64,000 bases of DNA, taken from contig JAHHSJ010000005.1 in NCBI GenBank assembly GCA_020025295.1, forward strand, positions 5,538 to 69,537, in the 5' to 3' direction. A program made the translations under genes and the position numbers. The notes beneath the pieces are model-generated. The model was not told the origin of the DNA, ran no database searches, and was given only the letters and a program-made list of their open reading frames with translations. Positions 8,154 through 53,609 of the stretch are shown here, one piece after another. The stretch's first letter is position 1; each line of letters starts with the position of its first letter. Source of the stretch: Oscillospiraceae bacterium (GTDB lineage: Bacteria; Bacillota; Clostridia; Oscillospirales; Oscillospiraceae).

Positions 8154-8186
8154 CCCTTCCAAGCAGAATTTTACCATGAGAAACGG

Positions 8187-8229
8187 CACACCCGGAGACA
8201 TTTTATGTCTCCGGGTGTTTTGCTTTTTG
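8187..8229 (+). terminator. Intrinsic terminator after ygiQ
   Basis: The hairpin ACACCCGGAGACA-tttta-TGTCTCCGGGTGT is followed by a T-rich run. Confidence 0.8.
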
Positions 8230-8525
8230 AGGGCCATTACACAAATTCTGTCAGAAAGCTTGGCAAATTGGGAGAAAAATGTTATAATTAACTCAGTAAT
8301 TTGCGTTTGTCGACCGAAAACGCAGAAGGATGACTGGTAAATAATAGGAATTTACTTTACATAATACGGTAGTTCAGCAATACGGCACCTCACAAGAAGA
8401 AAAAGTACAGTATTTGGATTGCGTAGGAATTTGGGAATACCACTCGTTTGCGGGCAAATGAGCAGGATTCTGATGATAGATAGATTGTGATTGTTATGGT
8501 ATGGATGTAGAGAGGAGCACAAAAA

Positions 8526-9065: not shown

Positions 9066-9110
9066 AGTTCCCCAAGGGCTGTGGAAAACCGGACAGTAAA
9101 ATTAAAATCA

Positions 9111-9157
9111 AACCCCGAAGGGCATCCGCAGATGCGCTTCGGGGTTGTTTGTTTTTG
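9111..9157. terminator. Bidirectional terminator between the carD-like gene (+) and the MFS gene (-)
   Basis: The hairpin AACCCCGAAG...CTTCGGGGTT has A-runs upstream and T-runs downstream. Confidence 0.7.
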
Positions 9158-12544: not shown

Positions 12545-12545
12545 T

Positions 12546-14210
12546 ATGAGAAAGAAAATCGTACAGTACTATGTGCTGGTGTGCGGTCTGGTCATGCTGC
12601 TGTCCTTCGGACTCTTTTTGACGGCAACCTATCAGTATGTGCAGATCGAGAGTATGCAGCACCTACAATCGGAAATGGGGTGCATTGCCGAGGGGGTCCG
12701 GCTCAACGGGGAGGAGTACTTCCGGCAGCTGGAAACCGAGGATCGGGTGACATGGGTCGGTGCCGACGGCACCCTGCTCTATGACAGTGCCCCGAAGGGA
12801 GCACGGGAGGACAACCTGCTGGAACAGGAGGAAATCCGGGATGCACTTCAGAATGGGACCGGCAAAAGTACCCGGCATTCGGATGTGTTTCCTCAGTACG
12901 ACATCTTCTACGCCCTGCGTCAGCCGGACGGTTCCGTGCTTCGGGTGTCCTGTGCGCAGGATTCCATGGTGTCCGTCATGCTTATCATGAGTTCACCGCT
13001 TTTGGGCATCCTGCTTTTGGTGCTGGTTTTGTGCTCCTTCTTTGCCTACCGTCTGGCACGGCAGATCGTGCTGCCCATCAACCAGATTGACTTGGACTAT
13101 CCCAATGTGGACGCCACCTATCGGGAGCTGACGCCGCTGGTGTCGAAAATCCAGCAGCAGAACCGGACGATTGCCCATCAGATGGACGAGCTGAGCCGAA
13201 AGCGCCGGGAATTTGCCGCCATCACGGAAGGCATGACCGAGGGCTTTTTGCTGTTGGACCGGCATACCAATATTCTCTCCGGCAACCGAAGTGCTCTGGC
13301 ACTGCTGGAGCAGGGCTCCGGGCAGAAAATCGAAAATCTGCGCCGAGACGGCTGCGTGCCTCAGGTGCGGGAGACTGTGGAGTTGGCGATTGCCGGCAAG
13401 CGGTCGGAGTTTGTCATCGAGGTGGAGGATCACTCCTGGCAGGTCATTGCCAACCCGGTGGTGTCCCACGGGCAGGTGCATGGTGTGGTGGTTCTGGTCA
13501 TGGATGTGACGGAACGGGAACAGCGAGATCAGCTGCGCCGGGAATTCTCCGCCAATGTGTCCCACGAGTTAAAAACGCCCCTGACCTCCATTTCCGGCTT
13601 CGCGGAGCTGATTAAAGAGGGCTTGGTGCCTCCGGATAAGATGCAGGAGTTTGCCGGAGATATTTACCGGGAATCCCAGCGCCTGATGGATCTGGTCAAT
13701 GACATTCTGCGGCTCAGCCAGCTGGATGAGCAGGGAAGTATGCCCAGTGCGGCTTCCGTGGATCTGTATGCCTTGGCTCGCCGGGTGCTGAGCCGACTTG
13801 CGCCGGTGGCGGAGGAAGGCGAAGTCACCCTGTCTCTGGAGGGCGAGCCCCATACCGTTTGGGGTGTTGAGCCGATTTTGGATGAAATGGTGTATAATCT
13901 CTGCGAGAACGCCATCAAGTATAACCACCGTCCCGGTCGGGTGGATGTGCAGGTGCGTAAGACCGGGGACGAAGTGGTGCTGAAGGTGAAGGACACCGGC
14001 ATTGGCATCCCGGCCAAAGATCAGCCTCGGGTGTTCGAGCGGTTCTTCCGTGTGGATAAAAGCCATAGCAAGGCAGTGGGCGGCACCGGTCTGGGTCTGT
14101 CCATTGTGAAGCACGGCGCTCAGTATCACAATGCAAGGGTGAAGCTGGACAGCCGACTGGGAGAGGGAACGACCATCACCCTCTATTTCCCACCGGATAA
14201 GAGCAAATAA
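12546..14210 (+). CDS. Sensor histidine kinase (PhoR-like: TM-sensor-TM, PAS, HisKA, HATPase_c)
   Basis: The H-box FSANVSHELKTPLTSI and the N/G boxes (NAIKYN, DTGIGI, GGTGLGLSI) are present. The start lies 1 nt after the response-regulator stop. Confidence 0.85.
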   Translation: MRKKIVQYYVLVCGLVMLLSFGLFLTATYQYVQIESMQHLQSEMGCIAEGVRLNGEEYFRQLETEDRVTWVGADGTLLYDSAPKGAREDNLLEQEEIRDALQNGTGKSTRHSDVFPQYDIFYALRQPDGSVLRVSCAQDSMVSVMLIMSSPLLGILLLVLVLCSFFAYRLARQIVLPINQIDLDYPNVDATYRELTPLVSKIQQQNRTIAHQMDELSRKRREFAAITEGMTEGFLLLDRHTNILSGNRSALALLEQGSGQKIENLRRDGCVPQVRETVELAIAGKRSEFVIEVEDHSWQVIANPVVSHGQVHGVVVLVMDVTEREQRDQLRREFSANVSHELKTPLTSISGFAELIKEGLVPPDKMQEFAGDIYRESQRLMDLVNDILRLSQLDEQGSMPSAASVDLYALARRVLSRLAPVAEEGEVTLSLEGEPHTVWGVEPILDEMVYNLCENAIKYNHRPGRVDVQVRKTGDEVVLKVKDTGIGIPAKDQPRVFERFFRVDKSHSKAVGGTGLGLSIVKHGAQYHNARVKLDSRLGEGTTITLYFPPDKSK

Positions 14211-26984: not shown

Positions 26985-27069
26985 GCGGGTATGATGAAAT
27001 TGGTAAACATGCTGGATTTAGGTTCCAGTGCCGCAAGGCTTGTGGGTTCGAGTCCCACTACCCGTACCA
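26985..27069 (+). tRNA. tRNA-Leu (anticodon UAG), type II with a long variable arm and an encoded CCA
   Basis: I folded this by hand. The acceptor is GCGGGTA/TACCCGT (G1-U72 wobble), the anticodon stem is CTGGA/TCCAG with loop TTTAGGT, the variable stem is GCC-GCAA-GGC, the T-arm is GTGGG-TTCGAGT-CCCAC, and the 3' end is A-CCA. Confidence 0.9.
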
Positions 27070-36174: not shown

Positions 36175-37580
<1,406 letters not shown>

Positions 37581-37581
<1 letters not shown>

Positions 37582-40074: not shown

Positions 40075-40804
40075 GAGCAATCGGGTAGAACGAGCGATCA
40101 TTATGGCCGCCGGAAAGGGAAAGCGGATGCAGCCGGTGACTTTGACGACCCCCAAGCCTTTGGTCAAGGTGAATGGGGTTCGCATGATCGACACCGTGAT
40201 TGATGCACTCCATACCAACGGCATTCATGAAATTTACATTGTGGTTGGCTATCTGAAGGAGCAGTTCACTGTGCTGCAGGAGAAGTACACCGGCATTACG
40301 CTGATTGAAAATCCGTATTACGATACCTGCAATAATATTTCTTCGCTGTATGTGGCCAGAGATCACATTTGCAATACCATTATTCTGGACGGAGATCAGA
40401 TCATTTATCATCCGGAAATTCTGACTCCGGACTTCACTCGTTCCGGTTATAACTGCATTTGGACGGATGAGGAAACCGATGAATGGCTGCTGAATGTGGA
40501 AGATGACATTGTCACCGCCTGCAGCCGTACCGGCGGAGCCGGTGGCTGGCAGCTGTTCAGCGTGTCCAGATGGAATGAAGCGGACGGCAAAAAGCTCAAG
40601 CGCCATCTGGAACTGGAGTTTGATGAGAAGCAGAATCGTCAAATCTATTGGGATGATGTGGCACTCTTCTGCCATCCCGAGGAATACCAGTTGGGTGTGC
40701 GGCAAATGTATGCCGGCGATATTCTCGAAATTGACAATCTGGACGAGCTGATTGCATTGGACCCCAGCTATGCCCGGTTTGGCAGTAAGGAGGAAACAAA
40801 ATGA
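40067..40804 (+). CDS. Second LicC-like nucleotidyltransferase (CTP:phosphocholine cytidylyltransferase family)
   Basis: ERAIIMAAGKGKRMQPVTLTTPKPLVKV matches the family motif, and the length is 245 aa. It overlaps the upstream gene by 8 nt. Confidence 0.75.
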   Translation: MSKSNRVERAIIMAAGKGKRMQPVTLTTPKPLVKVNGVRMIDTVIDALHTNGIHEIYIVVGYLKEQFTVLQEKYTGITLIENPYYDTCNNISSLYVARDHICNTIILDGDQIIYHPEILTPDFTRSGYNCIWTDEETDEWLLNVEDDIVTACSRTGGAGGWQLFSVSRWNEADGKKLKRHLELEFDEKQNRQIYWDDVALFCHPEEYQLGVRQMYAGDILEIDNLDELIALDPSYARFGSKEETK

Positions 40805-42348
40805 AAGAAAAGAATAAAATGACTGCGGACACGGGAAAACGGGTGGATTGGCTCATCACGCTGCTGCCGCTGGCTATCATTGTTGCGCTTTGCGTGGTGT
40901 TTATGGCAGCTCCGGAGCAGTCCAATCTGGTTCTGAGCAAGATCCGCTTCTTTTTCGGTGATACCTTTGGCACCTACTATCTGGTGATTGGCCTCGGTAT
41001 CTTCCTGGTGTCCCTGTTCATTGCCTGCTCCAAGTACGGCAATATTGTTTTGGGCGCACCCGATGAGAAACCCAAGTATTCGTTCTTTGCATGGGGCTCC
41101 ATGATGTTCACCTGCGGTCTGGCGGCGGACATCCTGTTCTACTCGTTTTCTGAGTGGTTTATGTACGCCAATGACCCCCATATTGCAGAGCTGGGCTCGG
41201 TGCAGGATTGGGCAGGCGTGTTCCCTGTGTTCCATTGGAGCCTTGTGCCTTGGGGCTTTTATCTGGTTCTGGCGGCAGCCTTTGGCTTTATGCTCCATGT
41301 CAGACAGCGTGAGCGTCAGAAGTTCTCTGAGGCCTGCCGCCCGGTTCTGGGCAAGCACACCGATGGCTGGGCCGGCCGCATCATCGACCTGCTGGCTGTC
41401 TTTGCCCTGATTGCCGGTACGGCAACCACCTTCAGCGTGGCCACCCCCCTGATGACCATGATTATCAATTCTCTGTTCCATGTGGAATTGAACCGCACTG
41501 CGGTGACCATCATCATTCTGATTATTACCTGCGTCATCTACACTTACTCTCTGCTCCACGGCTTTAAGGGGATCAGCTGGCTGGCAAAGGTCTGCATTTA
41601 CCTGTTCTTTGGCCTTTTGGTGTATGTGCTGCTGTTCTGCGGACAGACCAGATACATTGTGGAGACCGGTTTCTCCTCCATCGGAAGAATGGTGCAGAAC
41701 TTCTTTGAGCTTGCCACCTATACCGATCCCGGCAGAACCAGCTTCTTCCCCCAGAACTGGACCATTTACTACTGGGCCTATTGGATGGTCTGGTGCGTGG
41801 CAGCTCCCTTCTTCATCGGCAGCATTTCCAGAGGCCGGACCATTCGTCAGACCATTCTAGGCGGCTATGTCTTTGGCGTTGGCTCTACGATTTCCAGTTT
41901 TGTCATTTTGGGCAACTACTCCATGGGCATGGAGATGTCCGGAGCCACCCACCTGCTGGAGCAGTTCCAGCAGACCGGTGACACCTATCAGCTGATTACC
42001 TCCATTATTGACACCATGCCGCTGGCACCGGTGGTTTTGGCGGTGGTTCTCATCACTATGATTGCCTTCTACGCCACCTCCTTTGATTCCATTGCACTGA
42101 CGGCATCCTGTTACAGCTACCATCGGCTGAAGTCGGATGAGCAGCCCAACAAGCTGATCCAGCTGATGTGGTGCATCCTTCTGATTTTGCTGCCCATTGC
42201 ACTGATCTTCGCAGACAGCTCCATGAGCAATTTGCAGTCGGTCAGTATTGTGGCCGCATTCCCCATCGGTGCGGTGATGGTGCTGATTGTCTGGAGTTTC
42301 CTGAGAGACGCGAAAAAGTATATGAAGGAGAGCGGCAAGGCCTCCTGA
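40801..42348 (+). CDS. BCCT-family (betaine/carnitine/choline) transporter
   Basis: The 515-aa 12-TM protein contains GNIVLGAPDEKPKYSFFAWGSMMFTCGLAADILFYS and WTIYYWAYWMVWCVAAPFFIGSISRGRTIRQ, the BCCT signature region. Confidence 0.85.
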   Translation: MKEKNKMTADTGKRVDWLITLLPLAIIVALCVVFMAAPEQSNLVLSKIRFFFGDTFGTYYLVIGLGIFLVSLFIACSKYGNIVLGAPDEKPKYSFFAWGSMMFTCGLAADILFYSFSEWFMYANDPHIAELGSVQDWAGVFPVFHWSLVPWGFYLVLAAAFGFMLHVRQRERQKFSEACRPVLGKHTDGWAGRIIDLLAVFALIAGTATTFSVATPLMTMIINSLFHVELNRTAVTIIILIITCVIYTYSLLHGFKGISWLAKVCIYLFFGLLVYVLLFCGQTRYIVETGFSSIGRMVQNFFELATYTDPGRTSFFPQNWTIYYWAYWMVWCVAAPFFIGSISRGRTIRQTILGGYVFGVGSTISSFVILGNYSMGMEMSGATHLLEQFQQTGDTYQLITSIIDTMPLAPVVLAVVLITMIAFYATSFDSIALTASCYSYHRLKSDEQPNKLIQLMWCILLILLPIALIFADSSMSNLQSVSIVAAFPIGAVMVLIVWSFLRDAKKYMKESGKAS

Positions 42349-42424: not shown

Positions 42425-42460
42425 AAAACCCCCGGTTCTGTGTAAGAACCGGGGATTTTG
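42425..42460. terminator. Second hairpin with A/T tracts on both sides; serves as the terminator of the minus-strand ilvE operon
   Basis: The sequence is AAAACCCCCGGTTCT-gtgta-AGAACCGGGGATTTT. Confidence 0.75.
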
Positions 42461-42481: not shown

Positions 42482-43570
42482 TCAGAAGCCAAGGGGATAA
42501 GTCCAGCCCATGGTGTCCTCCACCGTGCCGGTCTGCATACCATAGATATTGTCGTAGAGCTTTTGTGCGACCGGGCCAACCTTGCCGTCGGCCACCTGCA
42601 CATCCGTGCCCTTGACACAGAGCCAGCCAATGGGAGAAATCACAGCGGCGGTGCCGGAGGCGAAGATTTCCTTCAGAGAGCCGTCTTTGGTGGCAGCTAC
42701 CACCTCGTCGATGGACAGTTTGCGCTCGGAAACCTTGACGCCCCATTTCTTCAGCAGCTGAATGACGGAGTTTCGGGTGATGCCGGGGAGGATGGTGCCG
42801 CTGTCCAGAGGTGCGGTGATGACCTCATCACCGATCATGAAGAAGGCGTTGGAGGTGCCGATCTCTTCCACATACTTGTGTTCTTCGGCGTCCAGCCAAA
42901 GGACGTCCTTGCAGTTATACTTGATGGCGTCCTGAGAGGCACGCATACCGCCGCCGTAGTTGCCGCCCACCTTGGCATAGCCGGTGCCGCCCTTGGCAGC
43001 ACGGATGTATTTGTCCTGCACATAGATGCGGGTGGTGCTGAGTCCGCCGTCGTTGGCGGCATAGTAAGAGCCGGTGGGGCTGAGGATAATCATGAATTTG
43101 TAGTGCTTGGCGGGCAGTACGGAGAAGGAAACCTCGTCGCCGAAGAGGAAGGGGCGGATGTAAAGCGCCGTGCCGGGGGCGTGGGGAATCCAGTCCTTGT
43201 CGGCTTCAATGACCGCTTTCAGTCCGGCCAGAAACAGGTCGCCGGGAACCTCCGGCATACACATACGCTCACAGGTGTTCTTCATGCGGGCGATGTTCAT
43301 GTCCGGGCGGAACAGCTGCACGCTGCCGTCGGGACGGCGATAGGCTTTCATGCCCTCAAACATCATCTGAGCGTAGTGCAGCACAGCGGAGGCAGGCTCG
43401 ATGAGGAAGGGCGCATGAGGCACCACACGGGGCGAGTGCCAGCCCTGCCCCTCGTCATATTCCATGACGAACATATGGTCGGTGAAGTATTTGGCAAACC
43501 CCAGCTGAGATTCGTCGGCAGGACGGGGCTTGGGGTTGGTGGTTCTGGTTACCGGGATTTCGTAAGTCAT
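42482..43570 (-). CDS. ilvE: Branched-chain amino acid aminotransferase (fold type IV, ~362 aa form)
   Basis: I trimmed the start to MTYEIPVTRTTNPKPRP...FTDHMFVMEYDEGQGWH. The pattern is typical of IlvE/YbgE-type BCAT (GGTGYAKVGGNY...). It is the last gene of the operon. Confidence 0.85.
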   Translation of the reverse strand: MTYEIPVTRTTNPKPRPADESQLGFAKYFTDHMFVMEYDEGQGWHSPRVVPHAPFLIEPASAVLHYAQMMFEGMKAYRRPDGSVQLFRPDMNIARMKNTCERMCMPEVPGDLFLAGLKAVIEADKDWIPHAPGTALYIRPFLFGDEVSFSVLPAKHYKFMIILSPTGSYYAANDGGLSTTRIYVQDKYIRAAKGGTGYAKVGGNYGGGMRASQDAIKYNCKDVLWLDAEEHKYVEEIGTSNAFFMIGDEVITAPLDSGTILPGITRNSVIQLLKKWGVKVSERKLSIDEVVAATKDGSLKEIFASGTAAVISPIGWLCVKGTDVQVADGKVGPVAQKLYDNIYGMQTGTVEDTMGWTYPLGF

Positions 43571-43589
43571 AGGAGGTCCTTCTTTCTCG

Positions 43590-44375
43590 TTAAATATGGT
43601 ACAGTTCCGGTCGTCTGTCCCGGAACACAGGAATCGTGTTTCGTATTTTGTTGAGGGTGTCCATGCTGCATTCACCCATCAGGATTTCTTCCTGCGTTCC
43701 GGCGAGAGCGATGGTTTCGCCCCAAGGGTCAATCACGGCGGAGCTGCCGCCGTATACCGTATCTCCGGCGGTGCCGCAGGAGTTGCAGCAGACCACAAAC
43801 ATCTGGTTTTCAATGGCTCTGGCGGTGGTCAGCGTTCTCAGATGGGCCGTCCGCACGCCGGGCCACTGAGAAACCACAAAGAGCAGATCCAAACCCGGCA
43901 CCGTCAGGCTTCGGGTCAGCTCGGGAAAGCGGAGGTCGTAGCAGATGATCAGACCGCAGTCCACACCGTCCAGCTGGAATCGACACAGGTGATCGCCGGG
44001 GGTGTAGCTGAGGTGCTCACCCATAGGGGAGAAGAGGTGGGTTTTGTCATAGGAGGTAATGCAGACGCCGGTGCGGTCAAACACCATGGCGGTGTTGTAT
44101 ATGTTGTCGTTTCGCTGGTTGGATACGCTGCCGGCGACGATGTTCACGCCGTATTTGGCGGCAAGTCCTCCGATTTTCTCTTTTACCCGGGCTCCATCCT
44201 CGTCGCAGAGTGCGGCGAGGTTTTCTTTTGGGAAAAAGCCGGTGTTCCAAGTTTCCGGAAGCACCAGCACATCCGGCTGTGCTGCCATGGCCTGTTCGAT
44301 CAGCTCTGCCGCATGGGTGAAGTTTTCGTTGGGACAGCCCAGCTTCATATCCATTTGCAGACAGGCGATTTTCAT
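43590..44375 (-). CDS. Carbon-nitrogen hydrolase family protein (nitrilase superfamily, omega-amidase/Nit-like)
   Basis: MKIACLQMD...LVLPETWNTGF holds the catalytic Glu region, and ...GLIICYDLRFPEL holds the catalytic Cys. Its ATG overlaps the upstream stop (ATGA). Confidence 0.8.
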   Translation of the reverse strand: MKIACLQMDMKLGCPNENFTHAAELIEQAMAAQPDVLVLPETWNTGFFPKENLAALCDEDGARVKEKIGGLAAKYGVNIVAGSVSNQRNDNIYNTAMVFDRTGVCITSYDKTHLFSPMGEHLSYTPGDHLCRFQLDGVDCGLIICYDLRFPELTRSLTVPGLDLLFVVSQWPGVRTAHLRTLTTARAIENQMFVVCCNSCGTAGDTVYGGSSAVIDPWGETIALAGTQEEILMGECSMDTLNKIRNTIPVFRDRRPELYHI

Positions 44376-44911
44376 GGCTGATAGTCCTTTCCCAGCAGCA
44401 GAGCCTTCATATTCAGCTCCAGCAGAGCGGCCTTGGTGGGGGGGACCAGCTTTTGCACCACCGCTTCCGTGCCCTCAAAGGAAAGCTCCGGGTGGTTTTC
44501 CAGCACATGCCCCATGAGAATCATGTTTGCCAGTGTGGCAAGGCCGTGCTCCTTTGCCATCTGGGTGGCGGGGATGGAGAATACCTCCACATCCTTCCGA
44601 TTCACTGGTTCGGTTACCAGAGAGGAGTCCACATAGATTTGACCGCCGGGAGCAACCGTACTTCCGTACTTTTGCAGGGAAGGGAGGTTCATGGCAATCA
44701 GTACATCCGGAGTAGTGATGATGGGAGAGCCGATGGGCTGCTCGGAGAGGATGATATTGCAGTTTGCTGTGCCGCCTCGCATTTCCGGACCGTAGGAGGG
44801 GAGCCAAGATACCTGCAAGTCGTCCATCAACCCCTTGTTAGCCAGAAACTTGCCGGAAAACAGAACGCCCTGTCCGCCAAAGCCTGCAATGAGGATTTGT
44901 GTGGTTTTCAT
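44372..44911 (-). CDS. 2-oxoacid:ferredoxin oxidoreductase subunit gamma
   Basis: [24 protein letters not shown] is typical of the POR/KOR/VOR gamma subunit. It forms an ATGA overlap with the beta-subunit stop. Confidence 0.85.
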
Positions 44912-45669
44912 TTGCACGCCACCTCCTGTTCTGCGGAACGATCCTTGTAAACACCAAGGGGATAGTAGGGGAGCATATCACTTTCCACCCATTCCAGTGC
45001 CTGCTGGGGAGACATACCCCAGTTGGTGGGACAGGCGGAAACCACCTCGACCAGAGAGAAGCCCTTGCCGTCGATCTGGTTCAGGAAGGCCTTCTGAATG
45101 ACCTGCTTGGCGTGTTTTACATTCTTTACATTGTTCACAGCCACCCGGGCGACAAACTCCGGGCCTTCCAGAGTGGACAGCATCTCGCAGACCTTGATGG
45201 GCCAGCCGCAGTGGTTCACATCACGGCCGTAGGGGCTGGTCTGGGTCACCTGACCGGGCAGAGAGGTGGGAGCCATCTGACCGCCGGTCATGCCGTAAAT
45301 GGCGTTGTTGACGAAGATGACGGTGATATTTTCGTTGCGAGCGGCGCTGTGGACGGTTTCCGCCATGCCGATGGAGGCTAAATCGCCGTCGCCCTGATAG
45401 GTAAACACCACATTTTCCGGACGGCAGCGCTTGATGCCGGTGGCGACCGCCGGAGCACGGCCGTGGGGAGTTTCAATCATGTCACAGGCGAAGTAATCGT
45501 AAGCCATAACCGCACAGCCGACCGGAGCCACACCGATGGTCTTGCCCTCAATGCCCAAGGTGTCCATGGCCTCGGCAACCAGACGGTGGATGATGCCGTG
45601 GGGACAGCCTGGGCAGTAGTGCAGCGGCACATCCAAGAGGGCGTGGGGTCGATCAAATACAACGGCCAT
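44908..45669 (-). CDS. 2-oxoacid:ferredoxin oxidoreductase subunit beta (TPP-binding)
   Basis: I trimmed the start to [25 protein letters not shown]. The GDGD...NN TPP motif ([14 protein letters not shown]...[15 protein letters not shown]) is present. Confidence 0.85.
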
Positions 45670-45671
45670 AA

Positions 45672-46742
45672 TCAGAATTCTCCTTTCTGGGCACGGCGGA
45701 TGGATTCCAGCACCTGATCCGGGCTGGGGATCATGCCGCCGCATCGGTTGCAGAGGGCAACCGGCTTTTTGCACTGGGTGGCAAGGCGGATGTCCTCGAT
45801 CATCTGCCCCATGCTGAGTTCCACGGAGAGGAACCCCTTCACCTTGTCTGCCGCAGCCAGCAGGGGTTTGGTGGGGAAGGGCCACAGGGTGATGGGTCGG
45901 ATCAATCCCACCTTAATGCCTTCTTCCCGGGCGGCGACGATGGCGTTCTTTGCCACACGGGCGGCGATGCCGAAGGCTACTACGCAGAGCTCTGCGTCCT
46001 CCATCTGGTATTCCTCCCACATGGTTTCGTTTTCCTCAACCTGCTTGTAGCGCTCATAACGCTGGAAGTTCTTCTGTTCCAGCTCTGCGGGGCTGAGGTA
46101 CAGGGAGTTGACCACATGGTGTTCCCGTTTGCCTTCGGTGCCGGTGAGTTCCCAAGGTTTATCATAGGTTTCGATTTCCACATCTTCAAAGGAGATAGGC
46201 TCCATCATCTGACCAATGGTGCCGTCGGCCAGAATCATGGCGGTCATGCGGTATTTGTCCGCCAGATTGAACCCCTTGACCGTCAGGCTTGCCATCTCCT
46301 GCACCGAGGCCGGCGCCAGCACGATCATCCGGTAGTCGCCGTGACCGCCGCCCTTGGTGGCTTGAAAGTAATCGGACTGGGAGGGCTGGATGCCGCCCAG
46401 ACCGGGACCGCCTCGCTGGACATTGACCACAAAGGCAGGAACATCGGAACCGGCGATGTAGCTCAGTCCCTCGGTTTTCAGGGAGATGCCGGGGCTGGAA
46501 GAGGAGGTCATCGCCCGCATGCCGGCGGAAGATGCGCCGTAGACCATGTTGATGGATGCGATCTCACTCTCTGCCTGTAAAAAGACGCCGCCGATCTTGG
46601 GCATTTTCTTTGCCATGTAGGCGGCAATTTCTGTCTGGGGGGTGATGGGATAGCCGAAGTAGTGGCGGCAGCCGGCCCGGATGGCGGCTTCTGCAATGGC
46701 TTCGTTGCCCTTCATCAATACTCGTTCTGCCATGGGAGCCAC
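45672..46742 (-). CDS. 2-oxoacid:ferredoxin oxidoreductase subunit alpha
   Basis: [33 protein letters not shown] is typical of the alpha subunit. The start is either GTG at 46742 or ATG at 46733. Confidence 0.85.
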
Positions 46743-46743
46743 C

Positions 46744-46950
46744 TTACCTTTCTACCTTGATGATACAGTCGGGACACATGGTTGCGCAGAAGGCGCAGCC
46801 GATGCACTGTTCCGGAGCGGTCATCACCGCCGGGGAATAGCCTTTGGCGTTGATTTTGCCGTTGGCAATCGCAAGAATGCCCTTGGGGCAGGCGTTGACG
46901 CACAGCCCGCAGCCCTTACATTGATCTTCTCGAAATGTTACTTTAGCCAT
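46744..46950 (-). CDS. 2-oxoacid:ferredoxin oxidoreductase subunit delta (2x[4Fe-4S] ferredoxin)
   Basis: The 68-aa ORF has two CxxCxxCxxxCP motifs (CKGCGLCVNACP and CIGCAFCATMCP). Confidence 0.85.
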   Translation of the reverse strand: MAKVTFREDQCKGCGLCVNACPKGILAIANGKINAKGYSPAVMTAPEQCIGCAFCATMCPDCIIKVER

Positions 46951-46971
46951 TTGAGTTCCTCCTTCGGCTGG

Positions 46972-47676
46972 TTATCCCCACAGAGGCCGATTTTGCGGCT
47001 TCTGTTCCGGTAAGTCAAAGTATTTTGCCTGCAAATGAAGCGGCAGTAGATTGGGCAGAACGCCCTTCAAGTCCTCAGCCACATCCGATCGCACCGTGTG
47101 CAAAAACACGGGGAGGTGACTGCGCTCGGACAGTGCGTGGATGAAATCCAGAGAGTCCAGCACCGTCTGGGGAGTGGTTTCGCTGCCCAGATTGGAGTTG
47201 TTTACAATATCAGTGAATTTCAGACCGCAGGCCGTTTCAATTTCTTCCATGACCTCCAGTGCATCCTCCGGCGTCCGGGTCAACGGGCGGTAGCAGTTGG
47301 CTACAAAGACCATGCGGTAGTTGTTTTCTTCTAAGATGAAGGGGGTGTAGCGCCCCAGCGCATAGGCCCCACGATCGTCGCCGCCGATGTCCATGATGCC
47401 CCAAGTGTTCCGGTCCTCTACCAGACGGTAGGCTTCCGCCGGCAGAGCGGGTAAATCCACATTGGAGTTGGCAAACTGGGGCGAAATCAGGTCTACACCG
47501 GCCTGTGCCAGCGTGTCGGCACTGTCTTTTGTGCGGAAATAGGGGTTCACAATGTCCAGATCTGCGATGCAGACATTCTTACCCAGCTCCGCCAGATGCA
47601 GGGCGTAGTTGACGGCAATATTGGTTTTTCCGGAGCCGTAGTGCCCTGCAAAGAGGGTCAGTCGTTTGTGTTCCAT
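46972..47676 (-). CDS. P-loop NTPase of the MinD/ParA/CooC-like (SIMIBI) type, function unknown
   Basis: The deviant Walker A FAGHYGSGKTNIAVNYA and DLDIVNPYF are present in a 234-aa ORF. GGAGGAAAC lies upstream. Confidence 0.65.
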   Translation of the reverse strand: MEHKRLTLFAGHYGSGKTNIAVNYALHLAELGKNVCIADLDIVNPYFRTKDSADTLAQAGVDLISPQFANSNVDLPALPAEAYRLVEDRNTWGIMDIGGDDRGAYALGRYTPFILEENNYRMVFVANCYRPLTRTPEDALEVMEEIETACGLKFTDIVNNSNLGSETTPQTVLDSLDFIHALSERSHLPVFLHTVRSDVAEDLKGVLPNLLPLHLQAKYFDLPEQKPQNRPLWG

Positions 47677-47693
47677 GTCGTTTCCTCCGGCGC

Positions 47694-49961
47694 TTACAGC
47701 TGATTGCGGATGATCTTTCCGCTGATGGTCTTAGGCAGGCTGTCCCGGAACTCCACGATTCTGGGGTACTTGTAGGGAGCCGTGTGCTGCTTGACATAGG
47801 TCTGGATTTCCTTCTTGAGCTCCTCCGAAGGCTGCTTGCCTTCCACCAGCACGATGCTGGCTTTCACGACCTGTCCTCGTACCTCATCCGGAGCGGCAGA
47901 TACGCCGCATTCCAGCACATAGGGCAGCTCCATGATGGTGCTTTCGATCTCAAAGGGCCCGATGCGGTAGCCGGAGGACTTGATTACATCGTCCGCACGG
48001 CTGACATACCAGTAGTAGCCATCCTCATCCCGCCAAGCCAAATCGCCGGTGTGATACAGGCCGTCGTGCCAGACGGCACGGGTCTTTTCCGGGTCCTGAT
48101 AGTAACCCAAAAACACGCCGCAGGAAGGTTCGCCGTCGGTGTGGATGACGATTTCGCCGTTGACGCCGTCGGGGACGGTGTTTCCGTCGGCATCCACCAG
48201 ATCGATGCCGTAGCCGGGGATGGGCTTGCCCATAGCGCCGGGCTTGAGCATCATGCCGCGCAGGCTGGCGATGCCGAGGGTCATCTCGGTCTGACCGAAG
48301 CCCTGCGCGATCTGCAATCCGGTGGCCTTCTCGAACTGATAGAATACCTCCGGATTGAGAGCCTCGCCGGCGGTGGTGGCGTGCTGGATGGAGGAGAGAT
48401 CGTAGTGGCTCAGATCCTGCTTGATGAGCATGCGGTACATGGTGGGGGGCGCACAGAAGGAAGTGATGTGATACTTGGCAAACATGGGGAGAATCTTCTC
48501 TGCGTCGAAGCGGTCGAAGTCGTAGGTGAATACGGCGCTCTCGCACAGCCACTGACCGTAAAGCTTGCCCCACAGGGCTTTGCCCCAGCCGGTTTCGGAG
48601 ATAGTGAAGTGCAGTCCGTCCCGGTCCGCCATCTGCCAGTACTTGGCGGTGACGAAGTGGCCCAGAGCGTACTTGTAGGAGTGCATGGCGATTTTGGGAT
48701 AGCCGGTGGTGCCGGAGGTGAAGAACATCAGCATCGGGTCGTTGCCACAGGGAGCATCCTCGGTCCGGAGATAACGGCGGCTGAACAGGCTGTACTCTTC
48801 ATCGTAGTTGTGCCAGCCCGCTCGGGAACCGCCCACCAGAATCTTGGTCATGGGGGGGCCCACCTGCTGCTCTGCCAGTTCCGCCTGATGGGCGGTGTCA
48901 CCGTCGGCGGTGCAAAGGATAGCGCTGACGCCGGCCGATTGAAAACGGTAGGTGAAGTCGTGTTCCACCAGCTGATTGGTGGCGGGGATGGCGATGGCAC
49001 CCAGCTTGTGCAGACCAAGGATGGCGAACCAGAACTGATAGTGCCGCTTGAGTACCAGCATCACCCGGTCGCCTCGTTTGATGCCGAGGGACTTGAAGTA
49101 GTTTGCGCTCTGGGAGGAGGCGTCCTTCATGTCCTTGAAGGTGAAACGGCGCTCAGTCAAGTCGTTTGCCACATAGAGCATGGCCAATTTGTCCGGCTCT
49201 CTCCGGGCAATGGCGTCCACCGTGTCAAAGGCGAAGTTGTAGGAGTTTTCGTCCTCAAAGTGCAGTCTCTTCAGCATGCCGTTCTCGTCCTCCTCCGGGT
49301 GGACGAACTTCTGGCACAGCAGCGGCTTACCGGACTTGTTGAAGCGGCTCTGACCGATGTAGAGCGGCTGGTCGGTGGTCTCGCTGACCATGATGATGGA
49401 AACGAATACGCAGTCCCGACCGTCGATGGCGATCATGCCGTGGGGGGTGGAGGACTTGTAGAAGATGCTGTCGCCTTCTCGCAGGACTTCCTCGTGCTCG
49501 CCCACCCGGACTCGGAGGGAGCCTTTCAGTACCAGGTTGAATTCCTGTCCGGCGTGGGTGGTGGTGTGGATGGGCTGATTCTGGAGTTCATCGGAGTATT
49601 CGTAGGTGACCCAGTAGGGGGTAGCCAGCTTCTTGCGGAAGAGAGGGGCCATGTCCTGAACGGTGATGCCGTCTTCGCTGGCGGTGACCAGACCCTTGCC
49701 CTTTCTCGTCACGGTGTAGCCGGTCAGCTTGGCACTGTGTCCTTCCAGCAAATCGGTGATTTCCAAACCGAACACTTTGGCACACTTGTGCATAAAGGTG
49801 AAGGGCAAGTCCGTAGTGCCGGATTCATACTGCCGGTACTGCTCTTCGGTATTTTCAGTCAGCTCTGCCATTTTCCGGATGCTGTAACCTAGAATGTCAC
49901 GCATCTCCCGGATTCGAAGGGCAATCTCCATCAACTGATTGGTCGTAGACTGTTTACTCAT
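47694..49961 (-). CDS. Fusion protein: XRE-type HTH + cupin domain + AMP-forming acyl-CoA synthetase (ANL superfamily)
   Basis: The N-terminal IREMRDILGYSIRKMAELTENTEEQYRQYESG is the HTH, and HAGQEFNLVLKGSLRVRVGEHEEVLREGDSIFY...PHG is the cupin. The ANL motifs FFTSGTTGYPK, GFGQTE, GDLAWRDEDGYYWYVSRADDVIKSSGYRIGPFEIE and PKTISGKIIR follow. Confidence 0.85.
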   Translation of the reverse strand: MSKQSTTNQLMEIALRIREMRDILGYSIRKMAELTENTEEQYRQYESGTTDLPFTFMHKCAKVFGLEITDLLEGHSAKLTGYTVTRKGKGLVTASEDGITVQDMAPLFRKKLATPYWVTYEYSDELQNQPIHTTTHAGQEFNLVLKGSLRVRVGEHEEVLREGDSIFYKSSTPHGMIAIDGRDCVFVSIIMVSETTDQPLYIGQSRFNKSGKPLLCQKFVHPEEDENGMLKRLHFEDENSYNFAFDTVDAIARREPDKLAMLYVANDLTERRFTFKDMKDASSQSANYFKSLGIKRGDRVMLVLKRHYQFWFAILGLHKLGAIAIPATNQLVEHDFTYRFQSAGVSAILCTADGDTAHQAELAEQQVGPPMTKILVGGSRAGWHNYDEEYSLFSRRYLRTEDAPCGNDPMLMFFTSGTTGYPKIAMHSYKYALGHFVTAKYWQMADRDGLHFTISETGWGKALWGKLYGQWLCESAVFTYDFDRFDAEKILPMFAKYHITSFCAPPTMYRMLIKQDLSHYDLSSIQHATTAGEALNPEVFYQFEKATGLQIAQGFGQTEMTLGIASLRGMMLKPGAMGKPIPGYGIDLVDADGNTVPDGVNGEIVIHTDGEPSCGVFLGYYQDPEKTRAVWHDGLYHTGDLAWRDEDGYYWYVSRADDVIKSSGYRIGPFEIESTIMELPYVLECGVSAAPDEVRGQVVKASIVLVEGKQPSEELKKEIQTYVKQHTAPYKYPRIVEFRDSLPKTISGKIIRNQL

Positions 49962-49984
49962 GGCAGTTTCATCCTTTCTGTGAC

Positions 49985-50245
49985 AATAAAAAAACTCGTC
50001 TCAAGATTAAATCTTGAGACGAGTTAAAATTCACCCGCGGTACCACTCAATTTGCGGCCTAGGCCGCCACTTCAGACTCCAACAAGCCCTATCCCTTAAC
50101 GCGGGCAGACGGGAGGAGTCTACTGGGGCAAACCGTTCGGTCCTCCGGCTCAGAAGTGATAGGTACTTGGAAGGGGAAAACATCGGCTCACACCACCCGC
50201 CGACTCTCTGAAGCTTTCGCAATTCCGACCGTCTTCATCAACGCC
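49985..50245 (-). promoter_or_regulatory. T-box riboswitch leader (Stem I with K-turn, AGAGA bulge, T-box sequence, terminator/antiterminator)
   Basis: The minus strand reads ...GGCGUUGAUGAAG...AGAGAGUCGG...CUUCUGAGCC...AAAUUGAGUGGUACCGCGGGUGAA. A 14-bp terminator hairpin (AACUCGUCUCAAGAU-uuaa-AUCUUGAGACGAGU) and UUUUUUU follow, 25 nt before the start codon. Confidence 0.85.
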
Positions 50246-50274
50246 TTTTTGTTATCTCGGTAATGATTGTGACA

Positions 50275-50303
50275 ACTTTACCACTTGCAAAAAAGCTTGT
50301 CAA
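50275..50303 (-). promoter_or_regulatory. Sigma-70-type promoter driving the T-box leader (TTGACA-17-TAAAGT on the minus strand)
   Basis: The hexamers lie at 50298-50303 and 50275-50280 in plus-strand coordinates. Confidence 0.6.
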
Positions 50304-50778
50304 GCGTTTTTTGCAGAGAATTTTTTCGACATCGGACGGGCTGAATTTCCGAAAAGAGAACAATTGTTGCCCTGAATGGACAGAAGAATTTTTCTCCAAT
50401 TTTGTGCAAGATGGTATAAAAATAACGAAAAATAAAAAGATTTACAACCGAAAAGTGACGCTGTTGGCGCCGCTGATTTTTTCAAAATTTGACGCCGGCT
50501 GCGGGTCAGACTGGTACGAAGTGCGAAATAAAATTTATTCATATTTCGAACTATCTTCTTCCCAGACGATGAGCTGAGTGCCCAGCGGATCGGCTGATTC
50601 TTCCGAAACAGAACCCTCTGCCGTGGAGCAGGAGCAATCAAATTCGCACACATCCTGTTCCTCTGACACCGGGCGAAAGGAGATAGCGATAAGCACCGGG
50701 ACAGGTGCCGTGGACGGAAATCAGCGCCTTTGCCATGCAGAGCGAAGCGGTATCTCCCATGATAGCGAGCCTCCGTGG

Positions 50779-51507
50779 CTATGCTGTGTCATCGTGAATC
50801 TGACCAATCAGAAGAAAACGCCCGTTCGTTGAGGCATCGGAGCAGGTGGAAAGCGTGATATAGTGCGCCTTCGGATCGGGAGCAACAGGGCGAACCAGCA
50901 GAGCGTGCTGGTTCACATAGTCCAGATACGCCGGATTTTCCTCTGGTTCTGTACTAAACAGAGTCGGATCATAGGCGTCTGCTTCCAAAAAGGCAAAGAA
51001 CTCAATGGTGTGCCAACTGCCGCTGTGGAATAAGCTTCCCTCAGTGTGGGTGTTGAAAAAATCTGGGCTGCTGAACCGTTCCAAGTCGCTGAACATGCCG
51101 CCTGTTTGCAGGTGATGCCCATAGAGGATGCTGTTCCCGTCGGAGAAGTTGGGGGCATTTCGAGCGTCCAGAAAGATGCTGCCGGACAGGGAGAACTGCC
51201 CGTTCACATCGGTGTTGACATATTTTGTGTTAGTTTCCGCTTGAACCAGAGGGGTGTCGATGTGGGTTCCATCCACCGTCAGCCAGCCGAACACCTCCGG
51301 GTTGCTTGCCTGTAAATCGGCGAAGGATTGGACCGAGTCCGGCTGAGGACGGTAGGACTGGAACACCGTCCCGTCCGCCTGTCGGCAAATCTGGGCGGAA
51401 TCCCATAGCCCATACGCTCCGTACAGCAGCAAGAGCAGAAAAAAGGCTGCAATCAGCCGCTGAAGCAGAGCGTCTGCCCGTCGGAGGAGAATGCAGCCGA
51501 ACCTCAT
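50779..51507 (-). CDS. srtB: Class B sortase
   Basis: The ORF has an N-terminal TM helix, then NPEVFGWLTVDGTHIDTPLVQ, SGSIFLDARN, ILYGHHLQTGGMFSDL and the catalytic TLSTC. Its ATG overlaps the pilin stop (ATGA). Confidence 0.85.
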   Translation of the reverse strand: MRFGCILLRRADALLQRLIAAFFLLLLLYGAYGLWDSAQICRQADGTVFQSYRPQPDSVQSFADLQASNPEVFGWLTVDGTHIDTPLVQAETNTKYVNTDVNGQFSLSGSIFLDARNAPNFSDGNSILYGHHLQTGGMFSDLERFSSPDFFNTHTEGSLFHSGSWHTIEFFAFLEADAYDPTLFSTEPEENPAYLDYVNQHALLVRPVAPDPKAHYITLSTCSDASTNGRFLLIGQIHDDTA

Positions 51508-52586
51508 TCACGATGAACGGAGTCTCTGCGTTTCAGCACCAACAGAAGAGTGAATGCGGCTGCGGCAGCAGCAATCAACAGGAAGAAGGGAAGCTCGTTG
51601 GTGTCGACGCCGGTGATGGGAATATCCTGATAGATGTTGACGAAAGCGGCCTTGTTGTCCTCTTCTCCCACCAGATTGTCGGTGGCGTCCGGGGAGAGGG
51701 AGGTCATGGCTTCGTCATCCATTGTGGCGTACTTGGTTTGGAACACCTGCCCGTTCTCTGTAACGGTAACGCTGGGAATATACCCATCCTTGGCTGCAAG
51801 CTCCGTGACGACATAGCGGGTGCCGGCAGGCAAATCGTCAAAGTTCAGTTTCTGCCCGTCATACAAAGTGAAGGCGACTTCCTGACCCACAGGGCAGCGG
51901 ACTTCCACGCCGTCAGGGCCATCTGTGTGACCGATAAACTCGGTTTCGCAGGAGGTGGCAGGAGCGTTGAATTTGATGACGAAATCAAAGGAGTGCTGTT
52001 TGTTTGCCAGGTCGCCCACGGTTTCCTTGGAAATTTCCAATTGGGCCGGCTTGGAAAAGATGTTGGTAAACCGGATTTCAGACTGTTTGACGAAATCCTT
52101 TTCCGCAGTGATGGTCTGGATATAAACAGAGCCATCATACTTGTTCGCCACATACACCCGGAGCGTGTAGACATCCTCGGAGTAAGCCATGGTGCCCTCA
52201 CCGGAGTAGGTGTTGGCAATCTCTTTCAGGGTGTACTCATAGAGTCCGGCGTGGGTGAAGGGAGCGAATACGATGGGGGAGGATTGGGTAATTCGAATCA
52301 GACCGGTTTCATCCTGCGTGTAGTCCGAACTGTCTCTGGCAGGATAGGTGATAGGGGCAATGGTTGCCTCGGGAGCGTCGCTAGTGACAGGGGTCAGCTC
52401 AAACTGAAAGGTGACGCAGGGGACGGAAATCCCCTCCGCCAGAACCAGTTCCTTGGTGACAACTGCACATGCGTCCCATGGTTCGGTCCCGGTCCCGATG
52501 GTGGGTACTTCGGCAGCAGAAGCCGGGCTGCCCAGAGCCAACACCATCGCAAGGGCAAGGAAAAGTGCGTGAAGCTTTTTCTTCAT
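51504..52586 (-). CDS. Cell-wall-sorted two-domain pilin-like protein (Spy0128/FctA-like isopeptide fold) with an IPITG sorting signal
   Basis: The signal peptide is MKKKLHALFLALAMVLALGSPASA. The pattern Lys...YxYxhxE...FxN recurs (VVTKEL / YEYTLKEI / IRFTNIF, then EISKET / YVVTELA / AAFVNIY). The C-terminal IPITG is followed by a hydrophobic helix and KRRD. Confidence 0.75.
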   Translation of the reverse strand: MKKKLHALFLALAMVLALGSPASAAEVPTIGTGTEPWDACAVVTKELVLAEGISVPCVTFQFELTPVTSDAPEATIAPITYPARDSSDYTQDETGLIRITQSSPIVFAPFTHAGLYEYTLKEIANTYSGEGTMAYSEDVYTLRVYVANKYDGSVYIQTITAEKDFVKQSEIRFTNIFSKPAQLEISKETVGDLANKQHSFDFVIKFNAPATSCETEFIGHTDGPDGVEVRCPVGQEVAFTLYDGQKLNFDDLPAGTRYVVTELAAKDGYIPSVTVTENGQVFQTKYATMDDEAMTSLSPDATDNLVGEEDNKAAFVNIYQDIPITGVDTNELPFFLLIAAAAAAFTLLLVLKRRDSVHRE

Positions 52587-52648
52587 AAAAAGAGTCCTTT
52601 CTGAAATCTTTTGTTCCCTTTGTGGGGGAAAGGAAGTGAAATCAAATC

Positions 52649-53179
52649 TCAGAACCCTCTGCGGCGGAGAAGGGTGATGACCAGCCCTTTGATCTCCTCT
52701 GCAGATACGGTACCGTAACTGCGGCTGTCTTTGGATTGAGGACGGTTATCGCTCAGAACAAAGAATTCCCCCGGCGGCACTGTGACAGGGAAGGAGCTGC
52801 CCTCTGTGTAGGGCAGCGTTTCCGTGGAAATGTCCGGCTCTTGCTGCAAGTAACCGTTGATTTGCAGACCGGCTTCCGTCAGGTCAACCACATCACCTCC
52901 CATAGCTACAATTCTTTGGATTTGGAGTTCCCCGTCCTTCTCCAGCACCACCACATCCCGGGGGCGGTATTCTTGCTGAAGGCGATAGTAAAAGACCAGA
53001 TCGCCGTCCTTGCAGGCCGGATGCATTCTGCTGTCGCTGCAACGGAAAAGGCCAAAGACAAACAGAAACATTCCGGCGATAAATAGAACAAAAATGGCAG
53101 CTTTCAGGAGAAAAAATCGCAGTTCGTGTTGGAAAGAACGCGTTTCTGCCGGAGTGCAGACAAAACCGGATTCAGACAT
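52649..53179 (-). CDS. Signal peptidase I (S26) paralogue lacking the catalytic Lys, with the catalytic Ser position uncertain; SipA/LepA-like pilus-assembly factor candidate
   Basis: I trimmed the start to MSESGF (AAGGGGA upstream). There is one TM helix. Box B reads SDSRMHPA, with Arg directly before the conserved Met-x-Pro where Ser is expected. Box D reads IQRIVAMGGD, with Gln in place of the catalytic Lys. Box E, SDNRPQSKDSRSYG, is retained. Confidence 0.7.
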   Translation of the reverse strand: MSESGFVCTPAETRSFQHELRFFLLKAAIFVLFIAGMFLFVFGLFRCSDSRMHPACKDGDLVFYYRLQQEYRPRDVVVLEKDGELQIQRIVAMGGDVVDLTEAGLQINGYLQQEPDISTETLPYTEGSSFPVTVPPGEFFVLSDNRPQSKDSRSYGTVSAEEIKGLVITLLRRRGF

Positions 53180-53609
53180 GGCAGCATCCCCTTGTTCCAT
53201 CCTGTACAGCAAACGGTGACACAGCGGAAATTTCCTTCCTAGCGCGTTCTCTGTGGCTAGGACGGGAAATTGCGGCTGAATACACAGGAAACATCGCTGT
53301 CGAAGGCAAAACGGCCGATTTTTGAAGTTGTTTTGCTGCTCGTGCATCCTTCATTTGCTCACAGTCCTTTCCATCCATGAAAAACACCGCAGTTCTGCGT
53401 CCGGGTACATGGGAGAAACGGTTTGATTGCTCCTTCTACCCGGATAATCTCATTGTATGAAGGATGGGTGAGCGTTGGACCGGACAGAGAGCGCAAAAAA
53501 GCAGCCGATCGTGAGATAGGCTGCTTGCTGCATTCGAAGAACGGTTTATGGGACATTCGGGGTGGTACTATAAGACTATCATAGGAAAGAAGAATGGGAG
53601 GTTTTCAGT

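Follow-up and report, generated by a model that had tools for sequence, protein, structure and literature searches.

Biochemical labelling work on rumen and gut anaerobes has shown since the 1960s that branched-chain amino acids can be made from branched short-chain fatty acids, and to our knowledge the pathway has so far had no defined gene set or regulator in bacteria. The reductive carboxylation route itself is long known in rumen organisms and methanogens (PMC2812497; PMC10658910), and methanogens use branched volatile fatty acids for the synthesis of isoleucine and leucine (PMC10658910). Here we describe an operon in 64,000 nucleotides (nt) of DNA from an Oscillospiraceae bacterium (GenBank assembly GCA_020025295.1, contig JAHHSJ010000005.1, positions 5,538 to 69,537 of the forward strand; this whole 64-kb stretch is called the window), in which eight minus-strand genes stand behind a T-box riboswitch. 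As judged from the genes alone, the chemistry is that of the rumen and methanogen route, from acid to acyl-coenzyme A (acyl-CoA) to 2-oxoacid to amino acid. There the route is known by labelling and growth requirements, with genes scattered or inferred, whereas the window, which comes from the gut Clostridia, would unite all steps in a single operon under an amino-acid-specific regulator.

A T-box switches genes on when an amino acid is scarce, and uncharged tRNA is needed for antitermination. The leader described here shares riboswitch class and logic with the Leu T-box of the Bacillus subtilis ilv-leu operon and the T-boxes of ileS and of Geobacter leuA (PMC2700814): recognised by a specifier codon and a UGGN bulge, the uncharged cognate tRNA keeps the transcript from terminating before genes that replenish its amino acid. 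The cargo differs: those systems control the acetohydroxy-acid/threonine pathway, an aminoacyl-tRNA synthetase or a transporter, and the cargo here is a proposed salvage route in which an acyl-CoA ligase is joined by a ferredoxin-dependent oxidoreductase and an aminotransferase. No mention of ferredoxin, oxidoreductase or acyl-CoA occurs in the main texts of the T-box regulon surveys Wels 2008 and Sun 2013, and our literature search found no paper pairing a T-box with acyl-CoA ligase/ferredoxin-oxidoreductase genes, in line with an earlier note on this DNA, to whose author no description of such wiring was known. The assembly of all steps in one operon, its T-box control, the pairing of two ligase paralogs with Ile and Val specifiers and the fusion of the ligase to a helix-turn-helix (HTH) and cupin module all appear to be undescribed in the searchable literature.

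The window probably carries a single operon that makes isoleucine from external 2-methylbutyrate and is switched on by a tRNA-Ile T-box. The biosynthetic direction is favoured because control is of the starvation type and the ligase is AMP-forming; an AMP-forming ligase commits to acid activation. The three-step route claimed in the earlier note (activation, reductive carboxylation, transamination) has all its predicted elements in the operon. The control region comprises the following features:

50275-50303, minus strand: sigma-70-type promoter, with TTGACA at 50303-50298, a 17-nt spacer and a TG-extended -10 hexamer TAAAGT at 50280-50275
50012-50250, minus strand: T-box leader (RF00230, cmscan)
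49986-50025, minus strand: leader terminator, a 15-base-pair stem at 50025-49993 with a 3-nt loop, followed by a T-run

The promoter matches 10 of 12 consensus positions and was the top promoter-like site of the region in a pattern scan; it is the TTGACA-17-TAAAGT promoter of the earlier note, with the TG extension added. A TTGAC -35 element and a TG-extended -10 element occupy the equivalent spot ahead of the Ile T-box in about 45 related species. The T-box, also proposed earlier, matched the covariance model over model positions 1-219 of 219 (E = 4.3e-21). Its 100.9 bits exceed the gathering score of 93, and it was the one T-box found in an Rfam scan of all 64 kb.

The register fixed by the cmscan alignment gives the specifier as AUC (Ile) at 50160-50158, followed by A at 50157, which is the codon plus purine typical of the specifier loop in this family. 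Because the register puts AUC-A at the specifier, the window leader is predicted to read tRNA-Ile. The functional class named in the earlier note stands; its general sensing of Ile, Val and Leu does not, as the specifier in the window is for Ile only. The T-box sequence AAATTGAGTGGTACCGCG lies at 50053-50036 with its UGGU bulge at 50045-50042. According to the cmscan alignment and the sequence, CTCGTCTCA is both the 5' arm of the leader terminator and the 3' arm of the antiterminator, so that a UGGN bulge sits in an antiterminator competing with an intrinsic terminator. For the 3' portion of the leader the folding energy is -35.6 kcal/mol (z = -4.85), a value that 0 of 200 shuffled sequences reached. 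All the defining features of the T-box family that can be tested by sequence are present, and by these the riboswitch is an ordinary T-box. Its tRNA response is expected from family behaviour, and its architecture can be read directly.

Downstream of the leader, eight tightly packed, co-oriented open reading frames run on the minus strand from 49961 down to 42482:

47694-49961, minus strand: gene 1, 755 amino acids, XRE-type HTH (residues ~16-74), cupin (~134-189) and AMP-forming ligase (~240-755)
46972-47676, minus strand: gene 2, 234 amino acids, SIMIBI-class P-loop NTPase with weak Pfam ParA/CbiA matches
46744-46950, minus strand: gene 3, oxidoreductase delta subunit, 68 amino acids, two-[4Fe-4S] ferredoxin-like, Pfam Fer4_7 and Fer4
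45672-46742, minus strand: gene 4, alpha subunit, 353-356 amino acids, start at GTG 46742 or ATG 46733, Pfam POR_N and PFOR_II
44908-45669, minus strand: gene 5, beta subunit, 253 amino acids, thiamine diphosphate-binding with motif CPGCPHG, Pfam TPP_enzyme_C
44372-44917, minus strand: gene 6, gamma subunit, 179-181 amino acids, ATG 44911 overlapping the gene 5 stop (ATGA), Pfam POR
43590-44375, minus strand: gene 7, C-N hydrolase of the Nit2/omega-amidase branch, 261 amino acids, start overlapping the gene 6 stop (ATGA)
42482-43570, minus strand: gene 8, IlvE type II aminotransferase, 362 amino acids, Pfam Aminotran_4
42430-42454, both strands: GC-rich terminator hairpin, CCCCGGTTCT..AGAACCGGGG, with T-rich tails both ways

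Along the operon the junctions measure 17, 21, 1-10 and 2 nt, then two ATGA overlaps, then 19 nt, in agreement with the gaps of 0-21 nt and two ATGA overlaps reported earlier. A pattern scan of the minus strand found no convincing internal terminator, its three weak matches each lying within coding sequence, and in the same kind of scan internal promoter and terminator counts showed no meaningful excess over shuffled sequence. The hairpin at 42454-42430 closes both the operon and a convergent BCCT transporter gene; the earlier note had placed it at 42425-42460 and had likewise seen no terminator before it. Given their single promoter, their short junctions and the lack of a credible terminator between them, the eight genes are predicted to form the single transcription unit that the note had claimed.

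Gene 1 contains the Pfam domains HTH_19/HTH_3, Cupin_2, AMP-binding (213 bits) and AMP-binding_C (71 bits), and its homologues are about 755 amino acids long as well, with an identical domain set. The earlier note had correctly called it an AMP-forming acyl-CoA synthetase and had overlooked the N-terminal HTH-cupin module. An ADP-forming acyl-CoA synthetase, an idea suggested by the length of 755 amino acids, was considered and rejected: the HTH-cupin module accounts for the surplus, and the catalytic portion is of the AMP-forming kind. The best match in the PDB was 3ETC (Macs of Methanosarcina acetivorans, 623 bits; next match 337 bits), to which the ligase domain is 52.7% identical over 514 aligned residues, and the top NCBIfam model was MbcS, with 423.5 bits. 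Macs prefers 2-methylbutyrate, and it has an alternative pocket tryptophan, W259, and glycine in place of the pocket tryptophan of Acs (PMC10455477). MbcS of Staphylococcus aureus is selective for 2-methylbutyrate and isobutyrate, with isovalerate and butyrate being poor substrates (PMC10026030). W442 of gene 1 aligns with Macs W259, and in alignment with Escherichia coli Acs, G556, A531 and G460 of gene 1 correspond to W414, V386 and V310, respectively. Since W442 and G556 match the Macs pocket residues, that is, the alternative tryptophan and the glycine replacing the Acs tryptophan, the acyl pocket is by alignment of the Macs type. Gene 1 differs from Macs and MbcS in its extra N-terminal HTH-cupin module of about 235 residues and in belonging to a family of two paralog clades paired with Ile and Val T-boxes; it differs from MbcS further in lying in an amino-acid operon and not in lipid primer supply.

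For comparison, related loci were collected by an alpha-subunit scan of one genome per GTDB species, which returned 80 loci (given L numbers) with alpha subunits 76-90% identical; because they were selected by alpha-subunit similarity, they sample one lineage and not bacteria at large. The eight window proteins were mapped across all 80 by tblastn and the leader by nhmmer. All belong to uncultured bacteria of human, mouse, chicken and ruminant guts, namely Faecousia, Oscillospiraceae, Acutalibacteraceae and related Clostridia. The order synthetase, P-loop protein, delta, alpha, beta, gamma is kept in each sufficiently long locus. An Rfam scan of seven related loci gave T-boxes above the gathering score in six of them, and several orthologous leaders fall below that score yet are clearly homologous to the window leader.

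A neighbour-joining tree of 98 full-length homologues divides the synthetases into two clades, A and B, with the window gene in A. An ATC T-box precedes every clade A gene that has upstream sequence (46/46), the specifier register being constant and the ATC unchanged while the flanking loops vary. Clade B genes with a T-box directly upstream follow a GTC, GTA or GTG T-box in 33 of 35 cases, L016 being ambiguous. The Val T-box has a promoter of its own, TTGAC(A)-~17 nt-TGnTATGAT, beginning just past the clade A stop codon. In thirteen loci clade B follows clade A directly and the second T-box is absent. The clade A gene has been lost in L026 and L050, whose leaders are 75-82% identical mutually and to the Ile-type leaders of sister species, and 46-49% identical to the Val-type leaders compared. 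The L026 leader (1261-1508) carries GTC where its sisters have ATC, is 76-80% identical to their Ile-type leaders and is followed by a clade B gene; the leaders compared with it were L043 4156-4412, L050 6336-6585 and L061 4028-4290, and L050 retains ATC despite the equal deletion. Judged from these pairings, the T-box specifier tracks the synthetase paralog.

The catalytic domains of the two clades share 75% consensus identity. At the position of Acs V310 (460 in gene 1), glycine is found in 46 of 47 clade A proteins and alanine in all 52 of clade B. Two further fixed differences put serine for T558 of the FGQTE motif and proline for A432, and positions 460, 558 and 432 all lie in segments that form the acyl pocket of Acs and Macs. 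Glycine versus alanine at the Acs V310 position would fit a C5 acid versus a C4 acid, the roomier pocket matching the larger acid. Most of the fixed clade differences fall in the HTH-cupin region, where consensus identity is just 41-45%. Gene 1, as a member of clade A, is predicted to activate 2-methylbutyrate to its CoA ester.

Leu T-boxes (CTG, CTC, CTT) adjoin many of these operons. In L023 (6287-2087, minus strand), for example, such a T-box drives a divergent leuA-like gene, and others occur at L011, L014, L018, L020, L041, L043, L044, L048, L050, L061, L063, L067 and L079, among other loci. The leuA-like product has HMGL-like and LeuA_dimer domains and scores under all LeuA cut-offs; its gene is followed, with an ATGA overlap, by one for an 838-amino-acid fusion of a xylose-isomerase-like TIM barrel and an acyl-CoA ligase. 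A third, Leu-specific synthetase of the gene 1 family was considered and rejected, as the Leu T-boxes drive the leuA-like gene and this unrelated TIM-barrel/ligase fusion. Of the Val, Leu and Ile scope given in the earlier note, isoleucine is retained for the window and valine is assigned to a separate paralog with its own T-box in relatives; leucine synthesis by this route, which the note had included, is dropped.

Genes 3-6 supply a complete oxidoreductase domain set, with Fer4 in delta, POR_N and PFOR_II in alpha, TPP_enzyme_C in beta and POR in gamma. The alpha subunit clears the cut-off of the VorB subfamily (NF005507, 548.7 vs 399 bits), and the OorA/KorA models of NCBIfam score far under their own cut-offs with it. 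The family name VorB presumably goes back to the anabolic VorABC of Methanothermobacter. A substrate range that includes branched 2-oxoacids is suggested by the family label together with the gene context.

The aminotransferase of gene 8 clears two IlvE equivalog cut-offs (NF009897, 451 vs 307 bits; TIGR01123, 366 vs 250 bits), and an amination gene lies beside the oxidoreductase in 58 of 63 informative related loci. The position after gamma is taken by IlvE, in three sequence types, in 33 loci and by a dehydrogenase in 26, one locus that has both being counted in each. The replacement dehydrogenase is a protein of about 360 amino acids from the Glu/Leu/Phe/Val-dehydrogenase family, placed in the Leu/Phe/Trp branch by its closest NCBIfam model; in L004 (12339-13421, plus strand), as in 25 further loci, it is the last operon gene, and the closest model is ScyB (365 bits, cut-off 600). 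A swap of unrelated enzymes at the amination position is what the proposed pathway predicts. The biosynthetic direction claimed in the earlier note thus gains support from the specifier-paralog match, the specifier switch in L026, the frequency of the amination gene and the kinship of gene 1 to Macs and MbcS.

Extra genes occur inside some related operons. L042, a member of the sub-lineage that has the C-N hydrolase and the same type of IlvE as the window, has inserts at 6872-9756 and 12355-13101 that encode two GNAT acetyltransferases, a hexapeptide (maltose-type) acetyltransferase, an AlkZ-related protein and a PNP_UDP_1 phosphorylase-family protein. In L066 (10889-13532) gamma is followed by an SSF-family sodium:solute symporter and a PALP-fold pyridoxal-phosphate enzyme; the symporter, whose family includes E. 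coli ActP, is a candidate importer of the branched acid.

The proposed mechanism is as follows. Transcription would start at the promoter at 50303-50275 and, with charged tRNA-Ile (anticodon GAU), stop at the leader terminator. Uncharged tRNA-Ile(GAU) would pair through its anticodon with the AUC specifier and through its 3' end with the UGGU bulge, stabilising the antiterminator, and the polymerase would then read into all eight genes. Gene 1 would turn 2-methylbutyrate into 2-methylbutyryl-CoA at the expense of ATP, which is cleaved to AMP; the four-subunit oxidoreductase would carboxylate the CoA ester reductively to 3-methyl-2-oxopentanoate, drawing on reduced ferredoxin and CO2; and IlvE would transaminate the latter to L-isoleucine. 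All three enzyme steps are assigned provisionally, from homology and context. In related species, the paralog behind the Val T-box would feed isobutyrate into the same oxidoreductase for valine, and the HTH-cupin module may add a second, ligand-dependent control.

Gene 7 would clear an amide by-product, and if glutamine is the donor, removal of 2-oxoglutaramate would pull the reaction forward. Omega-amidases hydrolyse 2-oxoglutaramate, which renders glutamine-dependent transamination irreversible; IlvE is a class IV aminotransferase and normally uses glutamate. Gene 7 matches Pfam CN_hydrolase with 170 bits, and its PDB ranking is led by 3P8K, followed by mouse Nit2 (2W1V) and yeast YLR351C (1F89). 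It resembles the glutamine transaminase/omega-amidase systems (Nit2/YafV/MtnU) in standing directly upstream of an aminotransferase gene; it differs from them in that the IlvE class of gene 8 usually uses glutamate and that gene 7 passes no equivalog cut-off (YafV-type amidohydrolase 137 vs 249, deaminated-glutathione amidase 124 vs 355). In L070 the C-N hydrolase and aminotransferase pair stays adjacent though relocated within the operon. That gene 7 hydrolyses 2-oxoglutaramate or a similar transaminase by-product is put forward only tentatively, as a possibility that falls somewhat short of even.

Several observations weigh against the isoleucine operon as proposed. Gene 1 misses the MbcS equivalog cut-off by far (423.5 vs 850 bits). 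The beta, gamma and delta subunits clear no specific NCBIfam cut-off. A clade B synthetase sits behind an ATC (Ile) T-box in L050, and in three loci with upstream sequence a clade B gene has no detected T-box. A Val T-box terminator precedes the oxidoreductase and amination genes in 24 species (e.g. L004 3879-12358), these loci having serial Ile then Val T-boxes, each with its own promoter; because the genes stand behind the Val terminator, isoleucine starvation alone would not obviously induce the whole pathway there. A gene 7 homologue is present in just 11 of the 80 related loci, accompanied by IlvE in nine of them; of the other two, L037 has the C-N hydrolase ahead of the dehydrogenase with no IlvE detected, and in L047 neither amination gene was detected. 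The link of gene 7 to transamination is weakened by this occurrence and by the arrangements in L037 and L047. Finally, a 64-kb window cannot show whether the threonine-derived isoleucine pathway is absent.

Among other explanations, a leader that is a decayed, non-functional T-box upstream of a constitutive operon is hardly credible. Its score is only 8 bits over the gathering threshold and several orthologous leaders are under it, but all defining elements are intact, ATC stays in register in 46 of 46 species amid variable flanking loops, and in L026 the specifier changed codon with the structure retained. More could be said for an oxidoreductase of the 2-oxoglutarate or pyruvate type with some other isoleucine-linked role, such as the supply of glutamate as amino donor, seeing that the nearest solved alpha structures (1YD7, 8YS5, 6N2N) are 2-oxoglutarate or generic 2-keto acid enzymes and that the best NCBIfam models for beta and delta are OorB and OorD, both below cut-off. 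The alpha subunit, however, is the one that clears the VorB threshold with OorA/KorA far under theirs, its constant partners are a ligase of the Macs/MbcS type and either IlvE or a dehydrogenase of the Leu/Phe/Trp type, and the controlling T-boxes bear Ile and Val specifiers across 80 species; we consider this explanation very unlikely.

The enzymes might also run in the other direction. The oxidoreductase and IlvE are both reversible, as is generally known, and the synthetase could scavenge 2-methylbutyrate for anteiso fatty acids, as MbcS does in S. aureus, with IlvE and the oxidoreductase working oxidatively in the manner of Bkd and the Ile T-box triggering scavenging when isoleucine is scarce. 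Such a supply of lipid primers would suit the top NCBIfam model of gene 1, MbcS, whose demonstrated role is branched-chain fatty acid primer supply (PMC10026030). Inducing a pair of isoleucine-consuming enzymes under isoleucine starvation would nevertheless be counter-productive, an amination enzyme is retained in the operon and is an NH3-dependent amino-acid dehydrogenase in 26 loci, neither fabH nor lipid genes turned up in the loci examined, and separate Ile and Val T-boxes on matched paralogs suit amino-acid demand better than lipid demand, so that primer supply seems clearly unlikely. Fermentative use, in which the operon degrades isoleucine through IlvE and the oxidoreductase for energy and excretes 2-methylbutyrate, has a precedent in the general knowledge that gut Clostridia run 2-oxoacid:ferredoxin oxidoreductases oxidatively to branched short-chain fatty acids. 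It is highly improbable here, given a T-box that activates on uncharged tRNA-Ile, the wrong signal for catabolism, and a ligase that is AMP-forming and not an ATP-conserving ADP-forming synthetase or phosphotransacylase-kinase pair.

The N-terminal module of gene 1 resembles, by its domains, XRE-HTH plus cupin regulators (PuuR-like), having HTH_3/HTH_19 and Cupin_2 together with homology to stand-alone proteins, and DNA binding is putative. Stand-alone proteins of about 185 amino acids match residues 8-190 with 31-42% identity (E ~1e-23 to 1e-39). The PuuR equivalog model stays below its cut-off for this module (27.6 vs 211 bits), and relatives of the HTH-cupin module are few, with 69 clusters reaching E <= 1e-30 in a set of 1.84 billion representatives. 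A PDB search with the N-terminal module returned weak or spurious matches only, the most relevant being HppE epoxidase at E = 0.005. The following repeat flanks the -35 hexamer of the operon promoter:

50286-50315, no strand assigned: perfect 9-nt inverted repeat, TGCAAAAAA / TTTTTTGCA

The repeat is a candidate operator for the gene 1 HTH module, to be taken as a lead only. Comparable 8-9-nt repeats occur in L012, L014 and L061; across the related species the repeat is not generally kept, and its small excess over shuffled sequences is confounded by A- and T-tracts. The fusion may make the synthetase its own transcription factor, acting at an operator around the -35 element, which we regard as rather unlikely on present evidence. 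The module would then sense a small ligand, for example the branched acid, a CoA or AMP ester of that acid, or the amino acid produced. If the idea were true, expression would need two signals, presence of the precursor (sensed by protein, at initiation) and lack of the amino acid (sensed by tRNA, at elongation), and the paralog pairs, with T-box and ligand module tuned to Ile or Val, would form a modular, duplicable 'sensor plus enzyme' cassette.

Gene 2, one of the eight genes counted in the earlier note and left there without a name, can now be called a P-loop NTPase. Its AlphaFold2 model has a predicted local distance difference test (pLDDT) score of 81.4 and a predicted template modelling (pTM) score of 0.82, and the top Foldseek matches were signal recognition particle GTPases, ATPase-type HypB and MinD/ParF, with TM-scores of 0.45-0.6. 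For its specific function, sequence and fold searches reach the SIMIBI class only, with no close match in either family or fold. Of the 80 related loci, 76 have a homologue upstream of vorD, and the remaining four are truncated at vorD or close to it. Gene 2 may help to assemble or activate the oxidoreductase as a maturation or accessory factor.

If the isoleucine operon is as proposed, it would supply genes and a regulator for an old pathway and make that pathway genetically tractable in abundant uncultured gut bacteria. The T-box specifier would act as a built-in annotation, telling which amino acid each synthetase paralog serves. Clade A (Gly460) is predicted to prefer 2-methylbutyrate and clade B (Ala460) isobutyrate, the oxidoreductase to accept both CoA esters, and leucine not to be a product of the route. 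Presence in at least 80 species would bear on how isobutyrate and 2-methylbutyrate are cross-fed, on the reasons why volatile fatty acids may be required to grow such organisms in culture, and on metabolic models that treat isobutyrate and 2-methylbutyrate as end products only. The range of T-box cargo would be widened to a ferredoxin-dependent, CO2-fixing salvage pathway.

No link between the neighbouring genes and the operon is evident. The convergent BCCT transporter gene lies downstream at 40801-42348 (plus strand), and a gene for a V/A-type ATPase catalytic subunit lies farther along at 36181-37581 (plus strand). The sole tRNA gene in the window, at 26985-27066 (plus strand), is 82 nt long with a long variable arm and is not a tRNA-Ile. 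Upstream on the same strand as the operon, genes for a sortase, an FctA/SpaA-type pilin and a signal peptidase occupy 50779-53347 (minus strand), separated from it by about 470 nt that include the promoter.

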